DNA of 64,000 bases from an uncultured virus (IMG/VR IMGVR_UViG_3300027906_004086). Its lineage: Duplodnaviria > Heunggongvirae > Uroviricota > Caudoviricetes. Below the pieces are notes generated by a model that ran no database searches, was not told where the DNA came from, and saw only the letters and a program-made list of their open reading frames with translations. A program made the position numbers and the translations under genes. Numbering within the stretch: position 1 is the stretch's first letter; every line of letters begins with the position of its first letter. The stretch is from the IMG/VR virus record IMGVR_UViG_3300027906_004086; one strand, given 5' to 3'. Shown piece after piece: positions 2,905 through 34,945 of the stretch.

Positions 2905-2908
2905 AGAA

Positions 2909-3610
2909 ATGACGCGCAGTATTGACTTATATGATGATGGGATTGGGAAGGTTGAGTATGTCGAGCACATGGGATCTGATCTCACCATAGTTAATAGTGC
3001 ACGTGTTTCTTTCGGTAAACAAAAGGAATCACTAGATGAAAAAGATGAGAAGCTCATTAAATACCTCATCAAGCATAGGCACACTTCGACTTTGGAACAC
3101 AATATTGTTACTTTCCGGTTTTGCGTTCCTTTGTTCATACGCTCTCAGCACCATCGTCATAGAACATGGTCTTATAATGAAATTAGTAGAAGGTATACTG
3201 ATGTAGATCTAAAGTTTTATGAACCTTTAGCGTTTAGGACTCAACATAAAACTAATAGGCAGGCTAGCAATACTGAGGAATTAATTAATCCGGATATGTC
3301 ACAAGGCACTAACACAGACCTTCGAGCTACGGACATGGTGGCTAGCCACCATAAACAGTCACTGTTTGTTTATAATAGGCTTCTAGATGAAGGAATATGT
3401 CGAGAGCAAGCGCGGGGTATTTTGCCTCAAAATTTGTATACCGAGTATTATGGAACATGCAATCTTAATAATCTAATTAAGTTTATTGAGCTGCGTACCC
3501 ACGATGGCGCACAACAAGAGATTCAATTAGTTGCCAAAGCTTGTCTTGATATTGCACAAGATCTTTGGCCAAAAACCGTGGCTGCATATAAAGAAGTCAG
3601 AGGATTGTAG
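2909..3610 (+). CDS. thyX: FAD-dependent thymidylate synthase
   Basis: NSARVS, RHRTWSYNEISRRY (RHRx7S), REQARGILP, AQQEI. Start set at ATG 2909, after the upstream stop. Confidence 0.95.
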   Translation: MTRSIDLYDDGIGKVEYVEHMGSDLTIVNSARVSFGKQKESLDEKDEKLIKYLIKHRHTSTLEHNIVTFRFCVPLFIRSQHHRHRTWSYNEISRRYTDVDLKFYEPLAFRTQHKTNRQASNTEELINPDMSQGTNTDLRATDMVASHHKQSLFVYNRLLDEGICREQARGILPQNLYTEYYGTCNLNNLIKFIELRTHDGAQQEIQLVAKACLDIAQDLWPKTVAAYKEVRGL

Positions 3611-21304: not shown

Positions 21305-21688
21305 ATGTTTGAAGACGATGATAAACTAGATGCTATGTTTCGCATGCGCGAAAGCTTTATGACGGCACTTAAGGAAAAGAACCCTGCCGAGTATCCTTCA
21401 TGGCCAATTGATCTATCAGACAAGACGTCACAGCAGCATGCTCGTGATATGGCATTACGTGGGGTTGAGGAAATGTTTGAAGCGTTACAACACCTTAAGA
21501 ACTGGAAGCCTCACCGCGTTACTCAGGTAACTGACTTCGACCGATCAGAGTTTGTTGAAGAGGTCGTGGATGCTTTTAATTATTTTTTGTCTGTGCTAGT
21601 TCTAACCGGAGTAACTTCTGAAGAGCTATTTGAGATGTATAAAAAGAAAGACTCAATTATCCACGACAGACTGAACACGGGATACTAA
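21305..21688 (+). CDS. All-alpha (dimeric) dUTPase/dCTPase-like NTP pyrophosphatase
   Basis: EEMFEAL..LKNWKPH...EEVVDAFNY (ExxE...EExxD). Confidence 0.8.
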   Translation: MFEDDDKLDAMFRMRESFMTALKEKNPAEYPSWPIDLSDKTSQQHARDMALRGVEEMFEALQHLKNWKPHRVTQVTDFDRSEFVEEVVDAFNYFLSVLVLTGVTSEELFEMYKKKDSIIHDRLNTGY

Positions 21689-23053: not shown

Positions 23054-25285
23054 GTGAAATCGCTATTTAACTTAACAATCGTTTCTCTTTTTATAGTCAC
23101 ATTATCATGTTCAGATGAGGACAAGCTTTTTCCAGTCTGCCCACAGGCCGGACAGCAGTTAAGTTGTATAGTATCAGACGACGGAACGATCCTCACCCAA
23201 GGTGCAGGTCAAATGATTCCGGATGAGTTTACCGAACAAGGTAATTGTCGTTTCGGCGTAACTTCATGTACCCAAAATGTAAATGATGATGGCACCGTCA
23301 CCGGATACACTGTTATTTGTGAAGGTCATATCCCACCTTCCATCGAGACATGTGATAGTCATGACAACGATTGTGATGGCCTAGTTGACGAAGACTTTGA
23401 TAGGGATAACGACGGCTACACACAGTGCGACTCCCGAGGCCATGACTGTTGGGATATTCCGGATATGCCACCCCAAGGAATGGAAGGCCTAGAACCTTTC
23501 CGCGCTGCACAGTTTAATCCAGCTGCAGAAGAAGTTTGTGATGGTTATGATAATAACTGCAATTGCTGGAATCGCACCACCGGTATGGATTCAAACCAGG
23601 ATGGTCTTTCGTGTGCATGCTCGCCTGATCCGGACTGCTACGGCAACAATTGCTGTGATGAAGGGATTGATGAAGATATTTCGAATTTGCCTTGCTTCGA
23701 TGGTGATCCTTCTGCTGTACTAGATAAGGATTCCCCTTGCGGGCTTGGCAAAAGATCATGTAACAATGGATCTTGGGGTGAGTGCGTCGGGCAGAGCATG
23801 CCGGAAATCGAAGTTTGTAATGGTATTGATGATGACTGCGATGGCGAGATTGATAACAATATAGAGACTGGCCTTTGTGGTTATAATGAAGTTGGTATAT
23901 GCCATTATGGAAATGATATGTGTATGCCAGACTCTGCAGAGATGATGTGTGTTGGAGCTTCATATCCCCAAAATGAAGCATGTAATAACCTAGACGACGA
24001 CTGCGATGGGCAGGTAGACGAAGATTTATGGGATTTATGTGAATCAGTGTGTGGGCAGGGCGTTGCAATGTGCCATGAGGGTAACTGGATAAACTGTACA
24101 GCACCACAACCTTCACCCGAGATCTGTGACGGTATTGATAATGATTGTGACACTTTTGTTGATGACGCTGATCCTGATTTAGAATCTTGCACGTGCCAAG
24201 AGGATGATACACAGTTTTGTACCTCACCCTTGCCAATGTTGGATCCAATAACAAACCTACCAGCCGAGGCTCCATATAATGCATGCGGGGTTGGTATTCA
24301 ATATTGTGAGCCTGGAGGGGAGTGGGGACCCTGCTTCTTTTTCTCTCCCGTAGAACCTGAAACATGTAATAATTGGGATGATGATTGTGATGGGCAGATT
24401 GACGGCATGATCGATTCATGTTGGACAAACCCAAATCAAGCGATTGTACCCACAGAACAAGGCGAATGCAGTTTGGGCTCCTCGACTTGCGTCGCAGGTA
24501 CCTGGGGTGGGTATGATGATCAAAATAATTTTATTGCTGGATTGTGTGAAGGTGAAGCCTGGCCGACAGAGGAAGTTTGCGACAACCTTGATAATGACTG
24601 CGACGGCCTAGTCGACGAAGACTTAAATCCGCATGAAAAAGTTGACATGGTATTTTTAATTGATGGTTCTGGATCTATGAATCAGGTCATTAATAATCTT
24701 AGGCAAGCGATGGCTACATATGCCAATGACTTTACCAATGCTGAATGCCCGGCAGGATCCGGCCAAGAGTGTCATAGGTTTGCAGTACTAATATTCCCAG
24801 GCCATGATCAGTTTAGTTGCGATGATGGCCCTGCATACGTGCCATTGACAAATAACGGTAATGGTGCGCTGGTCGAAGTCGCAGAGTTCCAGGCGGCTCT
24901 CGCTGGTACGCCTCAAGTTTGTGCGGACGAGCCCAGTTTAGACGTTGCATATGAAGTAATGGATCCAATAGATCCAGCCCAAATTGGATTCCGGCCGGAT
25001 GCATATCCTTATATTATAATGGTAACAGACGAAGGTGCACAGTCATGGACTGACGTTACTGATGCAGATGTTGGTGGAAGGTCATCCTCCTGCACCGTTG
25101 GTATATGTGGGCCAGGTGATCCATATGAAGTGTATGTTATAACGGAACCAAATTATTACATGCAATGGGACCTAACGACGTTAGGCGACCCAAATCGCCG
25201 AAAGAACCTCCAAGCCTTTCAGCAATCAGTTGCTCAAGGTATCGCAATCCTTCAAGAGATTTTTCAAAATGTCTGCCTTCCGTAA
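23054..25285 (+). CDS. Cys/Asp-rich repeat (MopE-like metal-binding motif) lipoprotein with C-terminal vWA domain
   Basis: Lipobox-like TLSC; seven E-x-C-[DN]-x-x-D-[ND]-[DN]-C repeats; VDMVFLIDGSGSM (MIDAS DxSxS) and VTDE. Confidence 0.8.
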   Translation: MKSLFNLTIVSLFIVTLSCSDEDKLFPVCPQAGQQLSCIVSDDGTILTQGAGQMIPDEFTEQGNCRFGVTSCTQNVNDDGTVTGYTVICEGHIPPSIETCDSHDNDCDGLVDEDFDRDNDGYTQCDSRGHDCWDIPDMPPQGMEGLEPFRAAQFNPAAEEVCDGYDNNCNCWNRTTGMDSNQDGLSCACSPDPDCYGNNCCDEGIDEDISNLPCFDGDPSAVLDKDSPCGLGKRSCNNGSWGECVGQSMPEIEVCNGIDDDCDGEIDNNIETGLCGYNEVGICHYGNDMCMPDSAEMMCVGASYPQNEACNNLDDDCDGQVDEDLWDLCESVCGQGVAMCHEGNWINCTAPQPSPEICDGIDNDCDTFVDDADPDLESCTCQEDDTQFCTSPLPMLDPITNLPAEAPYNACGVGIQYCEPGGEWGPCFFFSPVEPETCNNWDDDCDGQIDGMIDSCWTNPNQAIVPTEQGECSLGSSTCVAGTWGGYDDQNNFIAGLCEGEAWPTEEVCDNLDNDCDGLVDEDLNPHEKVDMVFLIDGSGSMNQVINNLRQAMATYANDFTNAECPAGSGQECHRFAVLIFPGHDQFSCDDGPAYVPLTNNGNGALVEVAEFQAALAGTPQVCADEPSLDVAYEVMDPIDPAQIGFRPDAYPYIIMVTDEGAQSWTDVTDADVGGRSSSCTVGICGPGDPYEVYVITEPNYYMQWDLTTLGDPNRRKNLQAFQQSVAQGIAILQEIFQNVCLP

Positions 25286-25369: not shown

Positions 25370-28300
25370 ATGACAAAGACACCAAAACGGTTTACTTCAC
25401 TTCATGCCCATGATGGGTTTTCGACTTTCGACGGCATGGGGTACCCACAAGAACACATTGATTTTGTAAAGCAAAACAACCAGGACTCCTGGTGTCTTAC
25501 TAATCATGGTCATATGAATAGTTTCGCCCATGCTTATCTTCATGTTGAAAAGATGCGTAAAGCCGGCGAAAACTTTAAGTTCATTCCTGGTTGCGAGATG
25601 TATGTACATCCTGATCTTAATGCCTGGAAACTAGATTATGAGATTCAAAGAGCAGCTAAGAAAGGTGACAAAGACGCGCTTCATAAGCTCCGGGCGGAGC
25701 GTGAGGCCTTAATAACTCCCTTGTTAGCTCATACAGACACAGACGATGAGACCATTAATATTACTAAAGTTGATGCCGGTGTTACTGTCGAGAATGAAGA
25801 GGAAACAAAGTCTGGTAAATTCTATGATCCAGTGAGGCGACGTCATCATCTAGTAGTACTTCCAAAGACATCCATTGGTCTACAAAGGCTTTTCCACTTA
25901 GTGTCTAGAGGGTACAAGGAGGGCTTCTATAGGTTTCCGCGTGTAGACTATAGTATGCTTAAAGAGGCGGCCGAGGGAGGTCATCTCATGATTTCTACCG
26001 CATGTTTAGGCGGCCCACTTTGCTATGAGGTTTTCCGCCACGTTCAACAGGTAGAATTTGAGGACTTGAATGCAAAGCTGCTTGATGATCCATCCCTTAT
26101 GAATAAGGTTCAAGCCAGTATCGGTAACGCATATGACTGTCTAACAGATGCAGTCGGTGTTGGGAATGCAAAGCTAGAGATTCAATTTAATAAGCTGCCG
26201 GCCCAAAACCTAGTTAACAGGGCCATTATTGAATATGCACGTAACGAAAATCTCGTTGACCAGCTTGTGGTCACCTGCGATTCTCACTACGCACACCCCG
26301 ACCACTGGAAAGAACGCGAAATCTATAAGAAGTTAGGTTGGCTAAACTACAAGGATTTTGATCCTGCCTCTCTTCCACAATCCCGTGATGATCTTAAATG
26401 TGAGCTATATCCCAAGAGCGCCGAACAGGTTTGGGATACGTATAACGAGATTAAAAAAGGTTGCGATTGGTATGATGATGATCTAGTCCACGGGGCCATT
26501 GAAAGAACACATGACATTGTGCACCATGAGATCGGGGACGTACATCCGGATAGAAGTGTTAAGCTTCCGAACTATGTTGTTCCAGCAGAACTAACCGAAG
26601 ACAAAGCCTTACTCGAGGCGTGCAAAAAAGGATTGGTTAGGAGAGGTCTCGAAACCAAGCCCGAATATATTGAACGTCTAAAGGTAGAGTTACGTATTAT
26701 TAAGGACAAGAAGTTCAGCAAATACTTCCTAACCATGAAGGCCATCTTTGATATTGCACGTAAGCATATGCTAGTAGGGCCAGGAAGAGGTTCTGGTGCA
26801 GGGTCCTTGGTTAACTATGTATTGTATATTACCGATGTGGATCCATTGGAATATGGGCTTCTGTTTGAACGCTTCTTATCCCGTTACCGCGAAGAGTATC
26901 CGGATATTGATAGTGACGTGGCGGATCGAGATCTATTGATTGATCTTATGAAGACGGAGTTTGGTAAAGAGAATATCGTACCTATCTCGAATTATAACAC
27001 GTTTAAGCTCAAGTCGCTGGTCAAGGATATTTCGCGTTTTTACGGGATTCCATTCGACGAAGTAAACCGGGCTCTAGGGCCTGTTGAGTCTGATGTAAAG
27101 CGTGCTGTCTTTAAGAAGGGGACAGACAAAAACCTGTTTACGCTGCTATATGAAGATGCGATTGAACACAGCCCAACTTTCAAGGCTTTTATTGACAAGT
27201 ATCCTGAGGTGGCTGAACCTATTAATATCTTGTTTAAGCAGAACAAGTCACTGGGCCGCCATGCCGGTGGGGTTATCGTATCCGAGAATATTGAAGAACG
27301 AATGCCGGTGATTATGGCTAAAGGTGAGGTTCAAACTCCATGGGTTGAAGGGATGCACTATAAGCATCTTGAGGAGTTCGGCTGGATTAAGTTTGACCTC
27401 TTGGGCCTTGAGACCCTCCGTATTGTCCAGCGAAGCATTGAGCTAATTCTTGCGCGCCATGAAGGCATTGAAGCCCCAACATTCAATGATGTCAAGGATT
27501 GGTTTGATAGCCACCTTGATCCAAAGGTTATTGATTTTGATGACCAGAATGTGTATGAGCGGGTTTACCACTCTGGACGATGGGGAGGGATCTTCCAAGC
27601 GACCCAGAAGGGTGCCCAGCGATTCTTTGAACAAGGCAAGCCTAGAAGTATTGTTGATATTGCGACCCTAACTAGTATCTATCGTCCCGGGCCGCTCTCC
27701 GCTGGCGTTCATAAAATTTACTTAGGTTCGAAGGCGAATCCGGAGAGTGTTGACTACCAACACCCCCTTATTAAAAAGGTGCTTAAAAGTACATACGGCG
27801 CTATTATTTTCCAAGAGCAAGTAATGGAACTGTGTAACGTCGTTGCCGGGTTCCCGCAGGAAGACTGCGATATGATCCGCCGTACCATCATGAAGAGATC
27901 CGCCTCCAAGGCAGATGCGATGAAGAAGCAAGCCCAAGAACTTAAGGAGAGGTTTGTTGCCGGATGTGTCGAGAATGGTGTGAAACAAAGAGTGGCAGAT
28001 GAACTATATGAAAAGATTCTATTCTTCTCAGGCTATGGGTTCAATAAGTCTCACGCCGTCAGCTATGCCATCGATTCATATTATTGTGCATGGTTAATGA
28101 CCCACTATGAAGAAGAGTGGTTGTGTGCATACCTTGAGTCCATGTCAGGTAATCCGGATAAGCGTAAGAAAGCCTTCGGTGAGATCAAAAAGTTAGGCTA
28201 TAAGATTGTTCCTATCGATATCAATCATGCTGATAAGACTTGGACGATTCTTGAAGGTAAGAAGTTTATGCCAAGCTTTCTATCTTGCAAAGGGATCGGG

Positions 28301-28972
28301 GAGTCTGCAATCGAGGAGCTGGTTGCCAACCGGCCATATAATTCAGTTGATGACTTGCTTTATAATCCAGACGGCAGTTGGAAACACTCAAAGTTCAACA
28401 AGCGCGCTCTTGAGAGCCTCATCCGGATTCGGGCCATGGGCTCGCTAGACATTGTCGGGGAAGATAAAGAGTTTTCTAGTTATAAGCAACTTCATGAAGT
28501 CTTGATTGGTCATAATGCTAATATCAAGAAGTGGACCAAGAAGGATCCTGATCGGGGCCGAAACAATTATCGTGAAGCTATGCTCGAGACCGCCGGTATG
28601 GAGGAGTGGTCTAGAAAAGAGATGGCTCAAAACAGTATTAGTTTGCTTGGTAACTTTAATGCTATGGCTTTGGTTCCTGAGATTCTCCAAAATAAATTTG
28701 ATGAAAAGGGTATTAAGTCAATCGATGAACATGATGGTAACAAGGATCTTTATTGGTTCGTGATTACTGATACTAAACCAAAGCTTACTAAGAATAAGAA
28801 GCCATACCTGTTGCTTACAACCGTAGGTGTCTCCGGCAGAAATGAAAGAATGTTTTTGTGGGGCTGGAAGCCAGATACAGAAGTGCACCCATATACTGTA
28901 TGTGTGGCTGAAGTTGACAAGAATGAGTACGGCTGCTCAACGAGGATTAGTAAATTTAAGGTCTTAAACTAG
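25370..28972 (+). CDS. dnaE: DNA polymerase III alpha subunit (family C)
   Basis: PHP motifs LHAH, GCEMY, DSHY; GPGRGSGAGSLV, LLFERFL, PDIDSD, RHAGGV, KFDLLGL, YGFNKSHA. Confidence 0.97.
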   Translation: MTKTPKRFTSLHAHDGFSTFDGMGYPQEHIDFVKQNNQDSWCLTNHGHMNSFAHAYLHVEKMRKAGENFKFIPGCEMYVHPDLNAWKLDYEIQRAAKKGDKDALHKLRAEREALITPLLAHTDTDDETINITKVDAGVTVENEEETKSGKFYDPVRRRHHLVVLPKTSIGLQRLFHLVSRGYKEGFYRFPRVDYSMLKEAAEGGHLMISTACLGGPLCYEVFRHVQQVEFEDLNAKLLDDPSLMNKVQASIGNAYDCLTDAVGVGNAKLEIQFNKLPAQNLVNRAIIEYARNENLVDQLVVTCDSHYAHPDHWKEREIYKKLGWLNYKDFDPASLPQSRDDLKCELYPKSAEQVWDTYNEIKKGCDWYDDDLVHGAIERTHDIVHHEIGDVHPDRSVKLPNYVVPAELTEDKALLEACKKGLVRRGLETKPEYIERLKVELRIIKDKKFSKYFLTMKAIFDIARKHMLVGPGRGSGAGSLVNYVLYITDVDPLEYGLLFERFLSRYREEYPDIDSDVADRDLLIDLMKTEFGKENIVPISNYNTFKLKSLVKDISRFYGIPFDEVNRALGPVESDVKRAVFKKGTDKNLFTLLYEDAIEHSPTFKAFIDKYPEVAEPINILFKQNKSLGRHAGGVIVSENIEERMPVIMAKGEVQTPWVEGMHYKHLEEFGWIKFDLLGLETLRIVQRSIELILARHEGIEAPTFNDVKDWFDSHLDPKVIDFDDQNVYERVYHSGRWGGIFQATQKGAQRFFEQGKPRSIVDIATLTSIYRPGPLSAGVHKIYLGSKANPESVDYQHPLIKKVLKSTYGAIIFQEQVMELCNVVAGFPQEDCDMIRRTIMKRSASKADAMKKQAQELKERFVAGCVENGVKQRVADELYEKILFFSGYGFNKSHAVSYAIDSYYCAWLMTHYEEEWLCAYLESMSGNPDKRKKAFGEIKKLGYKIVPIDINHADKTWTILEGKKFMPSFLSCKGIGESAIEELVANRPYNSVDDLLYNPDGSWKHSKFNKRALESLIRIRAMGSLDIVGEDKEFSSYKQLHEVLIGHNANIKKWTKKDPDRGRNNYREAMLETAGMEEWSRKEMAQNSISLLGNFNAMALVPEILQNKFDEKGIKSIDEHDGNKDLYWFVITDTKPKLTKNKKPYLLLTTVGVSGRNERMFLWGWKPDTEVHPYTVCVAEVDKNEYGCSTRISKFKVLN

Positions 28973-29438: not shown

Positions 29439-29969
29439 ATGAATTATAAACAGAGAATAGTTATTTTTGAGGGTCCGGATGGGTGTGGAAAGACGAACAT
29501 ATCCCAAGCGTTATCCGAGTCAGCTGAGATACCATATTTTAAAAATAAGGATGAGTGGAAAAACTTTGTCAATGATCCCTCTTATTTCGTGAATGCGCTA
29601 ACTTACGGTGATCCTTATTTTCTATCATACCTTGAGCAAACGAAGTCTAGCGTGATCGTTGATCGGTGGTATCCATCTGAATGGGTATACTCTAGGGTTT
29701 TTGATAGGCCTACTAGCCCAACTGTACTAAGAAAAATTGATCATCGAGCCGCCTCTTTGGGGGCGAAGATTATTATTCCTTATCGTACTTCATATGATAA
29801 TGTTGTCGATCAATTTGAAGATGTAATTACTCCAAATATCCTTCGTGCCGTTGATGGACTGTACAGGGAATTTGCGGAGTGGACCGAATGTGATACTTTG
29901 TTGTTGAATGTCGATGATGAAGACCTAAGTAGAGAATTGTCAGAAGTTATAACTTTTTTGAGGTATTAG
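29439..29969 (+). CDS. dNMP (thymidylate-type) kinase
   Basis: FEGPDGCGKT P-loop, VDRWYPSEWVY. Confidence 0.85.
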   Translation: MNYKQRIVIFEGPDGCGKTNISQALSESAEIPYFKNKDEWKNFVNDPSYFVNALTYGDPYFLSYLEQTKSSVIVDRWYPSEWVYSRVFDRPTSPTVLRKIDHRAASLGAKIIIPYRTSYDNVVDQFEDVITPNILRAVDGLYREFAEWTECDTLLLNVDDEDLSRELSEVITFLRY

Positions 29970-29970
29970 A

Positions 29971-30999
29971 ATGCTAAATATTGGATTATCTTATTGGGGC
30001 TTTTGTGAACCACAATGTGTAGTAGCAAACACCCCTGATGGCCACAGGTATGGCCGCCCTGTCTTAGTTGACGCCCTAACCGACAGGGGCCATAATGTTG
30101 TCGCCTTGCAGGATCAACGGGAGGATAATCCCTATAAGAACCTAACATATAGGAGTGACCTTCCAGATCTAGACATTGTATTTCTAGAGTGGCGTTGGCC
30201 AACCTATAAAAATTCGGGTCTCAACAAGTTTGAGCCAGATCTAGACCGGCAAACTGAGATCCTGGACTATTATCATGAACTAGGTGTTCCCGTCATTGCT
30301 TGGGATACTGATCTTAAGATGACTCCGGATGATGAGAGACGTTGGCCTAACATGATAATTGCCGACCCGACATTGGAACCTGAAAACTTTATCATTGCTA
30401 GGGAGAGACTTCCATTCTGGTCTGACTTTAAGCCCTTAATGGATGCAGCGCCAAGCCCAGTCGAGTTTGGGTATATCGGCAACAATTATGAGCGTGATGA
30501 CATGTTCATGAAATATTATTCAGAGCCTGCATCTTTGCTTAGGACTGAGGGGATCCAGACAAAGGTTCATGGTAACTGGCTGCAAAGATCTCCTGAACGC
30601 GCTTCACCTGAAACCTTAATTGCAAAACATCCATGGGTATCATTTGGACCACGGGTAAGCTTTAATGATTCTATGGCACTATTGAATTCGTTTATCTGTA
30701 CGGTTCATATTACTAAGCCTCGGTATGCTAAGCAAGGGTTTGCTTCTCCCCGGTATTTAGAGAACATTATCATGAATACCCCAGCACTTGTTCCTGGTGA
30801 GTTCTTGGTCCCAAATCTGCTTGGTGATTATTGGACAGTAAATTCTCCAGATGATGTATACCGAAAAGCTCTAGAGCTAAAAAAGATGTCTGCATATGCA
30901 AGAGAGACAGTTGTATTAGAGCAAAAGGCTAGCTTATTACATCATCACGACTTTAGCGTCGCTGCAGTTTGTAATTTTATCGAGAGCAAGGTAGGGTAA
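29971..30999 (+). CDS. Putative GT-B glycosyltransferase (nucleotide/DNA modification)
   Basis: IGLSYWGF, TPDG, LTDRGHNV, FLEWRWP, YIGNNYER, C-terminal SPRYLE; located between a kinase and a TS-like gene. Confidence 0.65.
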   Translation: MLNIGLSYWGFCEPQCVVANTPDGHRYGRPVLVDALTDRGHNVVALQDQREDNPYKNLTYRSDLPDLDIVFLEWRWPTYKNSGLNKFEPDLDRQTEILDYYHELGVPVIAWDTDLKMTPDDERRWPNMIIADPTLEPENFIIARERLPFWSDFKPLMDAAPSPVEFGYIGNNYERDDMFMKYYSEPASLLRTEGIQTKVHGNWLQRSPERASPETLIAKHPWVSFGPRVSFNDSMALLNSFICTVHITKPRYAKQGFASPRYLENIIMNTPALVPGEFLVPNLLGDYWTVNSPDDVYRKALELKKMSAYARETVVLEQKASLLHHHDFSVAAVCNFIESKVG

Positions 31000-31995
31000 A
31001 TGATGGAAAACGTATATGACAGCTTTACTGACTGCTATTTAGATTTAGCACAGCAGGTTTATAATAGTCCTGATTTTGAGTCTAGCCCACGAGGCATGGC
31101 TGTTCGGGAAAAACTAGCATGCAAGTTTACGATAACAAACCCACTAGATAGATTGCCTTATGTTCCTGCTAGGAAGTTTTCTGCAACGTATGTAATTGCT
31201 GAATTGTTGTGGTACCTATCTGCAGAGGATAGGACTGAGTGGATTTCGAATTATTCTTCATTTTGGAGTAGTATTAGTGATGACGGCACCACTGCTAACT
31301 CAGCCTATGGTGCTCGGATTTTTAAACCCCACCCCCGTATAGCGGGTGGCACGTTTTCACAATGGGACTATATAAAGGAAGAGCTGAAAAGTGATCCTGA
31401 TTCTCGTAGGGCTGTAGTTCACATCCGTTCACCATGGGATTCTGTTAAGGCGAAGTTAGATGTTCCATGTACACTATCGCTTCAGTTTTTTATTAGAGAT
31501 AATGATCTTCACCTAGTTGCTCATATGAGATCTTCTGATTTAATTTTAGGCATCGCGTATGATGTTCCTGCATTTACTTTGATGCAAGAGCTTATGGCTA
31601 AAGAGCTAGGCGTTGGGATCGGGACATATACACACGTAAGTAACTCTTTACATATCTATGAACGTCATTTCGAGATGGTCGAGGAGATGATTTCTAAGGA
31701 CGCTATCTTAGAAGCTGTTGGTAACCACCGGCAGTCTGGGCCAATGCCTGAGATGCCTTCTATGCCTCCAACTGATACGCTATATAATATAGAATCACAA
31801 CTAAGGGTTGCTAATAGCTTAGAACAGATCAACAAGATTGTTCATAATGCTAGTAAGGATGAAAATTGTTCTGCTGATTACTGGATTGACTGGGTTAAGA
31901 TCTTAGCTGCTCACCGGTGTGCCCGCCTTAAGATACGTGGCGAGAAGAAAAATTTAATTGCTAGTACATCTTTTTCTGGGTATCACCAATTCTAA
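31000..31995 (+). CDS. ThyA-fold enzyme, probable dCMP hydroxymethylase/modifier
   Basis: ELLWYL, DSRRAV, DVPCT, MRSSDLILGIAYD (Asp at the E. coli ThyA N177 position), SLHIYE. Confidence 0.8.
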   Translation: MMENVYDSFTDCYLDLAQQVYNSPDFESSPRGMAVREKLACKFTITNPLDRLPYVPARKFSATYVIAELLWYLSAEDRTEWISNYSSFWSSISDDGTTANSAYGARIFKPHPRIAGGTFSQWDYIKEELKSDPDSRRAVVHIRSPWDSVKAKLDVPCTLSLQFFIRDNDLHLVAHMRSSDLILGIAYDVPAFTLMQELMAKELGVGIGTYTHVSNSLHIYERHFEMVEEMISKDAILEAVGNHRQSGPMPEMPSMPPTDTLYNIESQLRVANSLEQINKIVHNASKDENCSADYWIDWVKILAAHRCARLKIRGEKKNLIASTSFSGYHQF

Positions 31996-32007
31996 TGGGG
32001 GGGTCTT

Positions 32008-33000
32008 ATGTCTAAAAAAGCATTAGTTACCGGTTGTTGTGGATTTATAGGATCCTCCCTGGTTCGGCGCCTTCTATCAATGGGATGGTCCGTTGAAGGG
32101 GTTGACGATTTATCAGCTGGTGATCTTGAATCTTTATCTGGCGTTAATATCCGTCCCGTTCCTGCTGATTTTTTGCACGTTTTTGAGTCTAGGCACTCGA
32201 TACAGGATGATCAGACGCTAGTAATAAATGGCGATTTTACTCATGATGCTATTTTGTCACGAATCCGTTCTGGTATTTATGATGCAGTATTTCATCTAGC
32301 GGCAAATCCTGATATGCAGCATTGTAATAATTTCCCTGTTGAAACATATGAGAACAATGTCCATAAGAGTATAGCACTAATGTATACATGTGCAGGGAAC
32401 GTTACCGATGTTATATTCGCTTCTTCAGCAGCAGTGTATGGTGATACTGGTGTAGGTGATTACCCCGTAATTTCTGAGGATTCATATTTAAGCCCCCTAT
32501 CTGCATACGGAATGCAAAAGCTTCATGTTGAACAGTATGTAAAGATACTTGATCCTCAAAAAACAAGCTTTACTTCTCTACGGGTTTTTAATGTGTATGG
32601 TCCTGGCCAGGATGCCGGCGTTATTGCCAAGTGGTGTAGCTCCATTAAGGCCGGTGAACCGTTAACCCTCCAAGGGACAGGAAACCAAACGCGGGATTTT
32701 TGTTATATCGATGATGTTGTCGATGCATTTATTTTAGTTGCATGTGAAGAACAGGCCGATGGGGTATCTGAGTATAATGTGGGTAGTGGCGTGAGTATTT
32801 CCTTAAACGTCGTCTTACAGCACTTGAAAAATTACTATCCTGGCGTTACAATTAATTATGAGAATTCGCGCCAGGCTGATATCTCACATTCACAGGCTGA
32901 TGTTACAAAAATTAATAAAGAATTAAACTATAATCCTCGTACGCAATTTTTGCATGGGATAAAAGAAACACTAAGATGGTGGGGAATAAATGAAGACTGA
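32008..33000 (+). CDS. NAD-dependent NDP-sugar epimerase/dehydratase
   Basis: TGCCGFIG, FHLAA, SSAAVYG, YGMQK, NVYGP, RDFCYIDD. Confidence 0.92.
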   Translation: MSKKALVTGCCGFIGSSLVRRLLSMGWSVEGVDDLSAGDLESLSGVNIRPVPADFLHVFESRHSIQDDQTLVINGDFTHDAILSRIRSGIYDAVFHLAANPDMQHCNNFPVETYENNVHKSIALMYTCAGNVTDVIFASSAAVYGDTGVGDYPVISEDSYLSPLSAYGMQKLHVEQYVKILDPQKTSFTSLRVFNVYGPGQDAGVIAKWCSSIKAGEPLTLQGTGNQTRDFCYIDDVVDAFILVACEEQADGVSEYNVGSGVSISLNVVLQHLKNYYPGVTINYENSRQADISHSQADVTKINKELNYNPRTQFLHGIKETLRWWGINED

Positions 33001-33553
33001 TCCAGAATTTATAATTTTTACGGGACCGATGTTTGGTTCAAAAACTACAAGGTTGCTAGCACAACTTGACAGGTTTGCGTATCAAAACAAGCGGATTGTC
33101 GCATTTAAGCCGATGATGGATAACCGGTATTCGAATGTGGAGATCTGTACCCATTCCGGAGGTCGGTTTCCAGCCCATGGGGTATCTCAAGGAGATGATA
33201 TCGTCGCACACCTTTCTGGCCTCGGTCATGATGTTGATGTCGTCGCGGTTGACGAGGCATTTATGATTGATGATGTTGCATCCGTTTTACTAGATCTATT
33301 CCGCAGAGGAAAGACTATTATTGTATCATCATTACAGCTTTCCGCTAGCGGCATGGTCTTTGAAGAAGTAATGGGAATGATGCCTTGGGCCACCAAGATT
33401 GAAATTTGTCCAGCAGTTTGCCCTATTACGGGCAGGGATGCATATTACACACATAGAAAAATTTCTAGTGAAAAGGAAATTGAGGTAGGGGGTGCTGATA
33501 TGTATGAGCCAAGATGCTGGGAGTACCATACTTATATGAATTGTAGGGAGTGA
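32990..33553 (+). CDS. tdk: Thymidine kinase
   Basis: GPMFGSKTT, FKPMMDNRY, VDEAF, VGGADMYEPRC. Confidence 0.9.
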   Translation: MKTDPEFIIFTGPMFGSKTTRLLAQLDRFAYQNKRIVAFKPMMDNRYSNVEICTHSGGRFPAHGVSQGDDIVAHLSGLGHDVDVVAVDEAFMIDDVASVLLDLFRRGKTIIVSSLQLSASGMVFEEVMGMMPWATKIEICPAVCPITGRDAYYTHRKISSEKEIEVGGADMYEPRCWEYHTYMNCRE

Positions 33554-34521
33554 TTAATATGGCAGTCGTAGAACCGAGTAGCGTTAACTGTGTAATTTAT
33601 CATGCTGACTGTACGGACGGTTTCGGCGCCGCATACTCTGCCTGGAAGTCCTTGGGGAATAGAGCGGAGTATCACGCATGTAAACATGGCACTGTCCCAC
33701 CAGATGTTACTGGTAAGGTCGTTGTAATACTAGATTTTTCATTTGATAACGCAACAACAAAAAAGATGATTGAAGATGCTGATGGCTTGATTGTTATAGA
33801 TCACCACAAGTCCGCCATGGTCGAACTTCATGATATATCCAATTGTCACTTTGACATGACACATTCAGGCGCTAGGCTAGCGTGGGACTTCTTTCATCCA
33901 GGTAAAGAACCTCCAAAGTTTATAAACTATATCGAAGACAGAGATCTCTGGAAATGGGAGCTACCTTACTCAAAAGAATTTGCAGCTGCCTTTGATATGG
34001 TTCCTTTTGAATTTGAGGAGTTTGAGAAATTTGAAGATGATTCTGTTTTTGACGACGCTGTAAAGCGCGGATCGTATGTTTTAGCATACTCAAAGACGGT
34101 TGTTAAGAAGGTATGTGAAAAGGCTTCTGCACGTAAGTTTGAAGGGATGGATGTACTGGTTGTTAATGCATCTCACTGGATGTCTGAGATTGGTGCCCGG
34201 CTTTCCCCAGATTGTGATTTTGCCGTTATCTGGTTTTATGATCATGAGGATAGAATTATAAAGGTATCACTTCGAGCTTTTCATGAGCATGTTGATGTCT
34301 CTGAGATATCCAAGAAGTTTGGTGGGGGTGGCCATAAAAAAGCCGCCGGATTTACTTTGCCTGGTGATGCGCTAGTAGATGATATTTTCGACATGGAAGA
34401 AGATGTCACTGAGGAAGAGCCCAGTAGTAATCCTGAGGAAGTAAAAGATTCCCCTAAGAAATCAAAGGGGAAAGGTAAGGAGCAAAAAGGTGAAAAGCCC
34501 GCAGGAAGTTCCGTTGAGTAA
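33550..34521 (+). CDS. DHH/DHHA1 phosphoesterase
   Basis: YHADCTDG, ILDFS, IDHH, EDRDLW, GGGGHKKAAGF. Confidence 0.9.
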   Translation: MINMAVVEPSSVNCVIYHADCTDGFGAAYSAWKSLGNRAEYHACKHGTVPPDVTGKVVVILDFSFDNATTKKMIEDADGLIVIDHHKSAMVELHDISNCHFDMTHSGARLAWDFFHPGKEPPKFINYIEDRDLWKWELPYSKEFAAAFDMVPFEFEEFEKFEDDSVFDDAVKRGSYVLAYSKTVVKKVCEKASARKFEGMDVLVVNASHWMSEIGARLSPDCDFAVIWFYDHEDRIIKVSLRAFHEHVDVSEISKKFGGGGHKKAAGFTLPGDALVDDIFDMEEDVTEEEPSSNPEEVKDSPKKSKGKGKEQKGEKPAGSSVE

Positions 34522-34945
34522 TTCACACCGCCCTGAGTGGAATAGGGTCTGGATGGAGTTTGCACAGATCATTGCACGCCGCTCTTACGATCCAAGGCAC
34601 CAGGTCGGTGCAGTAGTAGTTTCAGATGACAATACACAGGTCCTAGCAATTGGGTATAATGGAAACTATAAAGGTGGCCCTAATGAGGCCGAGTCTTTGA
34701 AGCCCGGTGAGTCTGGTATGATACATGCTGAAATTAATGCGTTATTAAAGATGGATTATAATAACCCAAAGTCGAAAATTCTTTATGTAACATTGTCACC
34801 TTGCAGGATGTGTGCAAAGGCCATAGTTAATGCTGGAATTCAAAAGGTATTCTATGATGAGGAGTATCGAGATACTTCAAGTTTAGAAATTCTTAGGAAC
34901 AGCGGTGTAGAAGTTAGCAGGTTTAGCCTTCAACACAATACATAA
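34490..34945 (+). CDS. dCMP deaminase
   Basis: VGAVVV, GYNG, HAEINAL, SPCRMCAKAI; start uncertain. Confidence 0.92.
   Translation: MKSPQEVPLSNSHRPEWNRVWMEFAQIIARRSYDPRHQVGAVVVSDDNTQVLAIGYNGNYKGGPNEAESLKPGESGMIHAEINALLKMDYNNPKSKILYVTLSPCRMCAKAIVNAGIQKVFYDEEYRDTSSLEILRNSGVEVSRFSLQHNT

Follow-up and report, generated by a model that had tools for sequence, protein, structure and literature searches.

Glycosylation of 5-hydroxymethylcytosine (hmC) is an established principle of DNA modification, and sugars other than glucose on hmC are already known. The glycosyltransferases (GTs) of phage T4 modify DNA after replication (PMC13216743), and in TET-type subclass II clusters a GT and an epimerase yield Hex-, HexNAc- and HexA-mC, mostly in an epimerase-dependent manner (10.1101/2023.12.21.572611). 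Contigs with GT-B and ThyS genes and epimerases were mined in bulk in the latter study. We analysed a 64,000-nucleotide stretch of DNA (the window) from an uncultured virus of the Caudoviricetes (IMG/VR record IMGVR_UViG_3300027906_004086), in which four linked genes, for a kinase, a GT, a thymidylate synthase (TS) homologue of the ThyA fold and an epimerase, probably encode a T4-style pathway to glycosyl-hmC. A sequence-only reading of the window had proposed cytosine hypermodification, and the TS marker residues and the linkage of kinase and GT across relatives support that proposal.

In this pathway, a MilA-shaped enzyme would convert dCMP to 5-hydroxymethyl-dCMP (hm-dCMP), which the kinase would phosphorylate for incorporation by the neighbouring DnaE polymerase. 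A transferase related to T4 beta-glucosyltransferase (BGT) would then add a sugar to hmC in the finished DNA. Removal of dCTP would fall to a gp56-like pyrophosphatase, and dTMP would come from dCMP deaminase together with ThyX. The likely purpose is protection from host restriction and CRISPR nucleases. Gene identities, residues and linkage across relatives are what we observe; every reaction, its timing, the sugar linkage and the share of cytosine replaced are predictions from them.

The predicted hydroxymethylase, glycosyltransferase and kinase

The closest structure in the PDB to the TS homologue is MilA (E 7e-56, residues 4–311), with the best ThyA at only 9e-25. Its key residues are E68, R136, D154, C157, T158, S178, D180, D188, H218 and Y220. 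The motifs on which the sequence-only reading had relied, MRSSDLILGIAYD and PCT, are both present (C157–T158, S178, D180, D188). D154, T158, S178, D180 and D188 are kept in 66 of 66 distinct relatives, and the R136 position is Arg in 64 of these, the remaining two being unread by the search pattern. In ThyA-fold enzymes, N177D is reported to confer a preference for cytosine, and Asp or Glu at L143 to accompany a hydroxymethyl instead of a methyl product (PMC13326640). The window protein has D188 at the N177 position, D154 at L143 and D180 at D169, together with C157 and E68, the combination of a dCMP hydroxymethylase. In a selection experiment, TS positions 177 and 147 best separated modified from unmodified contigs (PMC8670742), and both differ from ThyA here. 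D188, a published cytosine marker, supports the dCMP specificity suggested earlier. In two related loci, L053 and L020, an enzyme of the T4 gp42 type stands beside this GT family and kinase (E 2e-74 to PDB 1b49 for L053), a natural swap that supports the predicted conversion of dCMP to hm-dCMP. The assignment as a hydroxymethylase, made from these residues, is strong.

The GT had no match in Pfam, PHROGs or NCBIfam. PF13524 was matched by 42 of 115 close relatives, and the PF09198 model by none of the 115 at E 0.1. The AlphaFold model (pLDDT 94.9) has a GT-B fold, and in the fold search several GT-B enzymes, BGT 1c3j among them, scored a Z of about 21. When a profile of 119 sequences, close and distant members combined, was compared with known structures, BGT was found at E 3.2e-14, followed by two designed proteins (9e-4 and 4e-3) and by the next natural GT at 0.4. 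In the hhalign alignment (98.6%), D114, R175, Y252, R261 and E264 of the window GT are aligned to BGT D100, R195, Y261, R269 and E272, and each is conserved in 114–119 of 119 rows. We take BGT D100 to be the catalytic base and R195, R269, E272 and Y261 to bind UDP. The Atlas feature neighbours of the GT include two PF09198 clusters. No tblastn match was found among 50,697 phage records, and the scan of bacterial and archaeal genomes gave two short marginal matches only. Together, the GT-B model and the specific profile match uphold the earlier call of a glycosyltransferase and make a strong case, at the level of sequence, for a homologue of BGT that stands outside Pfam family PF09198. Because of this kinship, and because the T4 enzymes act after replication, transfer with inversion onto replicated DNA is the simplest reading. 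By analogy, the evidence favours this timing, and the linkage would be beta if the BGT mechanism is retained.

The kinase matches phrog_761 (thymidylate kinase) at E 2.4e-11, and the profile of its family matches SPbeta YorR (PDB 2axp/3kb2) at E 5e-8; the sequence-only call of a kinase is supported by both. YorR is also the top structure reported for the kinase of the modified-dCMP cluster of DLP3 (PMC13326640, Table 1). Among the supporting genes, the protein at 21305–21688 has matches to dUTPase_2 (E 2e-4) and PRA-PH (E 6e-3), both below the curated cut-off, and its profile aligns with 69 columns at the C-terminal end of T4 gp56 (probability 96%). The separate ThyX described earlier was confirmed, and with it a second dTMP synthase is unnecessary. 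Palindromes are not avoided in the genome (observed/expected 1.105 for 4-mers and 1.054 for 6-mers), a weak sign of shelter from restriction.

Linkage across relatives and the identity of the sugar

Related loci were labelled by BLASTP against our own reference set. A locus was available for 82 distinct full-length GTs; 39 were kept (at least 4.0 kb upstream and at least 4.8 kb downstream), and the remaining 43 were excluded for insufficient flanks. Within 5 kb of the GT, a kinase is found in 39/39 loci, a ThyA-fold enzyme in 38 (35 MilA-like, two gp42-like and one other), DnaE in 35 and a sugar-nucleotide enzyme of some kind in 38. The sugar enzymes are the window-type epimerase (31 loci), a second SDR type (16), UDP-galactopyranose mutase (10), a UDP-xylose-synthase-like protein (9) and an FAD oxidoreductase with a short SDR (5).

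Several observations weigh against the proposed pathway. The 39 loci come from related phages, some near-identical, and do not represent independent events. One of them, L059, lacks a ThyA-fold gene within 5 kb, and another, L198, lacks any sugar enzyme within this distance. The structure search suggested by the sequence-only reading upheld the GT-B fold but did not single out BGT, as GT4 enzymes tie with T4 BGT and AGT (Z 21.9–20.9); it is the sequence profile that points to BGT. The close GT profile of 115 sequences found no match in the PDB, and only the deeper one did. The gp56 match spans only 69 columns and does not separate a dCTPase from a dUTPase. An active dCMP deaminase would compete for dCMP, as in T4. 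The window epimerase lacks five residues in the conserved substrate loop after FNVYG, and its identity trails that of the TS by 14.6 points, where other pairs show a lag of 3.6 ± 4.6; this copy has diverged faster than its neighbours. The window-type epimerase is missing from 8 of the 39 loci. Finally, the presumed sugar-binding motifs of the GT do not vary with the kind of sugar enzyme at the locus: HRYGR and GFASPRYLE are identical in loci with epimerase A, with epimerase B and with both.

The epimerase itself matches PF01370 at E 4e-47, and its best PDB match is PelX (6wjb, E 5e-39). The family falls among the C4-epimerases WbgU, WbpP, PelX and Thermotoga GalE. The protein scores under all NCBIfam cut-offs (galE 133 against 262), and the nearest structures are of mixed specificity; PelX is reported to prefer UDP-GlcNAc/GalNAc (10.1101/2020.05.26.111013). 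The GxxGxxG NAD motif (residues 8–15) and S140, Y167 and K171 are kept, in alignment with PelX S121 and Y146, and the PRVxYS motif is lost. The shortened loop occurs in 19 of 121 homologues, with 31 of the 121 unread by the pattern; a quick tree of these homologues covers 60 of the 121 rows. An assembly error was considered as the cause of the loop loss and rejected, as the covering contigs show no indel and 19 of 121 homologues are likewise shortened.

A scan led by the epimerase, which covered 5 of the 64 parts of the collection, gave 13 orthologous loci. Five carry the window-type GT, two a GT-B of another family and one an alpha-GT; four have a kinase–TS fusion without a GT within 8 kb, and one is cut short. 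In the locus set at large, which is biased towards GT loci, the window-type epimerase is also found in 10 of 46 loci without the window-type GT. The epimerase travels with the modification slot, yet is not tied to the window-type GT. With these counts, the sequence-only claim of a dedicated epimerase and hence a non-glucose sugar is not established.

Since the epimerase family sits among C4-epimerases and UDP-galactopyranose mutase, an enzyme that needs a galacto- or arabino-pyranose donor, flanks the epimerase in 10 of 39 loci, we tentatively read the sugar as galacto-configured (galactose, Gal, or N-acetylgalactosamine, GalNAc), supplied by the adjacent enzyme, at a little less than an even chance. 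A sugar other than Gal, GalNAc or glucose is unlikely. Neither a mutase nor a UDP-xylose synthase, and no further epimerase or GT, was found in the 75 kb available, a partial genome. The undescribed base suggested earlier is possible, with a chance no better than even. Epimerase-dependent sugars on hmC have been published (10.1101/2023.12.21.572611), and with Hex, HexNAc and HexA among them a non-glucose base here would not be a new kind.

The main alternative leaves the hmC pathway intact and competes with its sugar step only. The GT would use UDP-glucose of the host to give a T4-like glucosyl-hmC, and the epimerase would be a backbone gene with another or a fading job. We regard host glucose as nearly as likely as Gal or GalNAc, at less than an even chance. 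The GT descends from, or shares ancestry with, BGT; the epimerase of the window has diverged; and both the constancy of the two GT motifs and the presence of the window-type GT in just five of the 13 epimerase-led loci speak for this alternative. Against host glucose stands the near-constant presence of a sugar-nucleotide enzyme. Of the 39 GTs with the HRYGR motif, 37 have such an enzyme within the operon; for the remaining two, the locus is truncated on the upstream side. The GT motifs are changed in the mutase-bearing clade and in L198. BGT E22, presumably a glucose contact, aligns to Arg in the window GT, in a weak stretch of the profile alignment. Five of the six listed variants in the epimerase are synonymous.

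Addition of the sugar to the mononucleotide before replication, with the kinase then acting on a glycosylated nucleotide, is improbable. In most loci the kinase, GT and TS genes lie side by side, and the fold neighbours of the GT include small-molecule GT-B enzymes, but its sole specific sequence relative acts on DNA, as T4 GTs do after replication. DLP3 and RB69 have the same kinase–GT–TS order, and a section title of the paper describing them places the modification on DNA (PMC13326640).

More improbable still is a ThyA-fold enzyme that yields 5-hydroxy-dCMP or 5-methyl-dCMP, two products that the sequence-only reading had listed beside the hydroxymethyl form. The 5-hydroxy-dCMP synthases of RB69 (gp48), DLP3 (gp80) and RL38JI are also MilA-like in structure and carry N177D and L143E, but D169N, found in every such synthase tested, is the hydroxylase marker (PMC13326640). 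It is absent here, D180 being kept in the window protein and in all 66 relatives. A methylase would retain a hydrophobic residue at 143 and would leave the GT without an acceptor. D154 and D180 therefore narrow the three options to hydroxymethyl, and the predicted product from dCMP is hm-dCMP.

Least probable is that the enzyme belongs to a ribonucleotide pathway like that of mildiomycin, making hm-CMP for RNA or a small molecule, or that it is an ordinary TS of the dUMP type. In favour of these readings, the similarity to MilA is full-length, including the C-terminal helical region, and Pfam and NCBIfam both carry the thymidylate synthase label, the latter under its cut-off. Against them, Ser167/Arg126 in place of the ribose-preference residues Ala176/Lys133 of MilA (also BcmA) mark a preference for deoxyribose, and MilA with both changes no longer used CMP (PMC5175136); the window protein has the equivalent S178 and R136. 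A canonical ThyA is contradicted by D188 for Asn177, T158 for His147 and a TIGR03284 score of 79.9 bits against 108.35, no MilB-like glycosidase was seen nearby, and the genes lie in a replication cluster with ThyX.

Gene arrangement, setting and the variable slot

The coordinates of the four genes and of the genes that bear on them are collected below.

Table 1. Genes of the predicted glycosyl-hmC pathway and their context in the window
Feature	Position	Strand	Size and basis
P-loop dNMP kinase (predicted hm-dCMP kinase)	29439..29969	+	176 aa; phrog_761, YorR-like profile
GT-B glycosyltransferase of no named family, distantly related to T4 beta-glucosyltransferase	29971..30999	+	342 aa; model and deep profile
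MilA-shaped ThyA-fold enzyme, predicted dCMP 5-hydroxymethylase	31000..31995	+	331 aa; MilA match and marker residues
Extended-SDR NDP-sugar epimerase, PelX/WbpP/WbgU C4-epimerase neighbourhood, diverged copy	32008..33000	+	330 aa; PF01370
All-alpha NTP pyrophosphatase, candidate dCTPase/dUTPase (supporting)	21305..21688	+	dUTPase_2, PRA-PH, part of gp56
dCMP deaminase (supporting, dUMP supply)	34490..34945	+	PF00383 E 5e-22; phrog_174 E 3e-49
ThyX, likely dTMP source (supporting)	2906..3610	+	TIGR02170 159.8 bits, cut-off 87.9
DnaE-type DNA polymerase, directly upstream (context)	25370..28972	+	PF07733, PF17657, PF02811
Thymidine kinase, first of the conserved downstream backbone genes (context)	32990..33553	+	PF00265 E 5e-33

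The tight packing of the four genes noted earlier was confirmed, with intergenic gaps of 1, 0 and 12 bases. A small DUF7695 gene lies between the DnaE polymerase and the four-gene set. Packing continues unbroken past the epimerase through thymidine kinase, a DHH phosphoesterase and dCMP deaminase (32990–34945), and the 3′ limit of the operon was therefore a choice of the sequence-only reading. The scan for promoters and terminators did no better than on shuffled sequence (22 against 16.3 ± 4.1, and 4 against 4.0). The genes are covered by contigs from four other runs, of which X2 and X3 show identical pieces and are possibly a single data set, with zero indels inside any gene. Among the 40 differences listed (of 101), 35 fall in the GT, TS, epimerase and thymidine kinase genes, and 32 of these 35 are synonymous. 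The four genes are real and intact.

The available sequence of the phage is one 75 kb contig. An epimerase of 99% identity sits on a 299 kb contig and related phages reach 187–278 kb, so the 75 kb sequence is a piece of a giant phage. Among the listed runs with matching contigs, 13 of 14 are labelled marine metagenome and none holds RNA data. No tRNA was found in the window. A 743-aa protein at window positions 23054–25285 has a lipoprotein-like start, MopE-type metal-binding repeats and a vWA domain, a protein type known from myxobacteria and relatives and possibly a hint of the host. Across the 75 kb contig as a whole, CACG/CGTG and GACC/GGTC occur less often than expected (ratio 0.66), and CCGG more often (1.43). 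Beyond the window, at contig positions 68115–74780, more than ten small open reading frames follow in a run and have a common N-terminal motif, MKITKRQLRRIIKEE.

The slot behind DnaE is variable in the relatives. UDP-galactopyranose mutase adjoins the GT in L015 (4397–8998; TIGR00031 above cut-off), L035–L041 (not L039), L052, L066, L067 and L083, which suggests a furanose donor; most of the GTs there form one clade with changed motifs. In L017 (109–6477), L160, L163, L171, L185 and L209, a UDP-xylose-synthase-like SDR, an FAD oxidoreductase and a short SDR stand directly before the kinase, a trio that may make a pentose donor. An unrelated GT-B protein of about 430 aa replaces the GT between kinase and TS in L043 (14077–15387), L045, L046, L049, L051, L054, L065 and L075. 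This protein matched nothing in Pfam or PHROGs, nor the profile of the window GT; the GT-B assignment comes from fold comparison.

The same slot holds a dNMP kinase of about 300 aa, fused to a strongly diverged ThyA-like half, in L068 (7026–7940), L069 (7072–7980), L070 (7083–7955) and L071 (5955–6863), all without a GT within 8 kb. The ThyA-like half (hhalign 79.5%) keeps the Cys and Asp177, and the D169 position is Asn in two of the four and Glu in the other two. Asn at this position is the marker of 5-hydroxy-dCMP synthases, and the fusion is possibly a separate type of cytosine-modifying enzyme. A third TS type (Asp143, Asp177) accompanies a more elaborate modification cassette in the slot of L047 (8957–17573), L048, L055 and L072. 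These cassettes variously carry a trimeric dUTPase, myo-inositol-1-phosphate synthase, an FkbM methyltransferase, a 5-hmdU-kinase helical-domain protein, a C5-methylase-like protein, and sulfotransferase-like genes or an alpha-GT. In L006–L016, an insert that bears an endonuclease often interrupts DnaE, and freshwater-type relatives encode a volactin-like actin upstream (L008, 459–1463).

Relation to described systems

The locus would extend T4-style glycosyl-hmC to widespread uncultured aquatic phages of 190–300 kb that replicate with DnaE. The pathway there would use a hydroxymethylase of MilA shape and a family of transferases in which no member is cultured or annotated. A search of the literature, with subscription papers and preprint supplements outside its reach, found no paper describing this GT family. 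Iyer et al. reportedly predicted clusters of TS, kinase and GT in 2013, and may already list this arrangement. A further proposal, which we hold as doubtful, is that the BGT-related GTs of marine and freshwater giant phages put phage-made non-glucose sugars on pre-replicative hmC. In the window the sugar may be galactose or GalNAc, or may come from a new donor in view of the reshaped epimerase pocket; elsewhere it may be galactofuranose where the mutase is present, and xylose or arabinose with UDP-xylose synthase. If so, the variable slot behind DnaE would amount to a natural library of interchangeable DNA sugar coats, from which new enzymes for labelling 5hmC could be drawn. Should the sugar follow the cassette, it would show how phages diversify their DNA coats against modification-dependent nucleases.

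The T4 system for glucosyl-5hmC (gp42, gp1, gp56, Cd and BGT) has the same set of functions as the window. The diagnostic residues are common to gp42 and the window TS, gp42 orthologues replace this TS in some relatives, and the window GT is homologous to BGT, but just 12–15% identical. The window differs in its MilA-shaped TS with an extra C-terminal region, in a kinase that is YorR-like and not gp1-like, and in having a DnaE polymerase, dTMP from ThyX and a variable sugar-nucleotide cassette beside the GT. Compared with MilA, the CMP hydroxymethylase of mildiomycin synthesis (PDB 5jnh, 5b6d), the equivalents of E68, C155, D152, D186, H216 and Y218 are kept, whereas Arg and Ser replace Lys133 and Ala176, from which a preference for dCMP is predicted, and the context is that of phage replication (PMC5175136).

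In the TET-type clusters a GT is paired with an epimerase, as here. There, 5hmC arises from a methyltransferase and TET on DNA, whereas in the window hmC would precede replication, and the GT-B enzymes reported as tested belong to subclass III (10.1101/2023.12.21.572611). The glycosyl-5-hydroxycytosine systems of RB69, DLP3 and RL38JI share with the window the kinase–GT–TS order and their own sugar-nucleotide enzymes (PMC13326640). In RL38JI the sugar is galactose and a UDP-galactopyranose mutase is used, which may also hold for some relatives of the window. Their TS enzymes have D169N and make 5-hydroxy-dCMP, whereas the window TS keeps the Asp.

The closest cultured matches to the TS are in Bacillus phage G (gp313–gp319; L001, 1296–7032), whose gp319 is 33% identical over 92%, and in Enterococcus phage VPE25. 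A kinase and a deaminase lie near the TS in these clusters, with an alpha-GT in phage G and a beta-GT in VPE25. These GTs are recognisable as AGT or BGT, whereas the window GT has no match in a cultured phage. The TS enzymes of both phages have the same D/E143, D169 and D177 pattern as that of the window. Phage G is a cultured phage with a MilA-shaped TS and the same diagnostic residues, and is the easiest system in which to test this type of TS.

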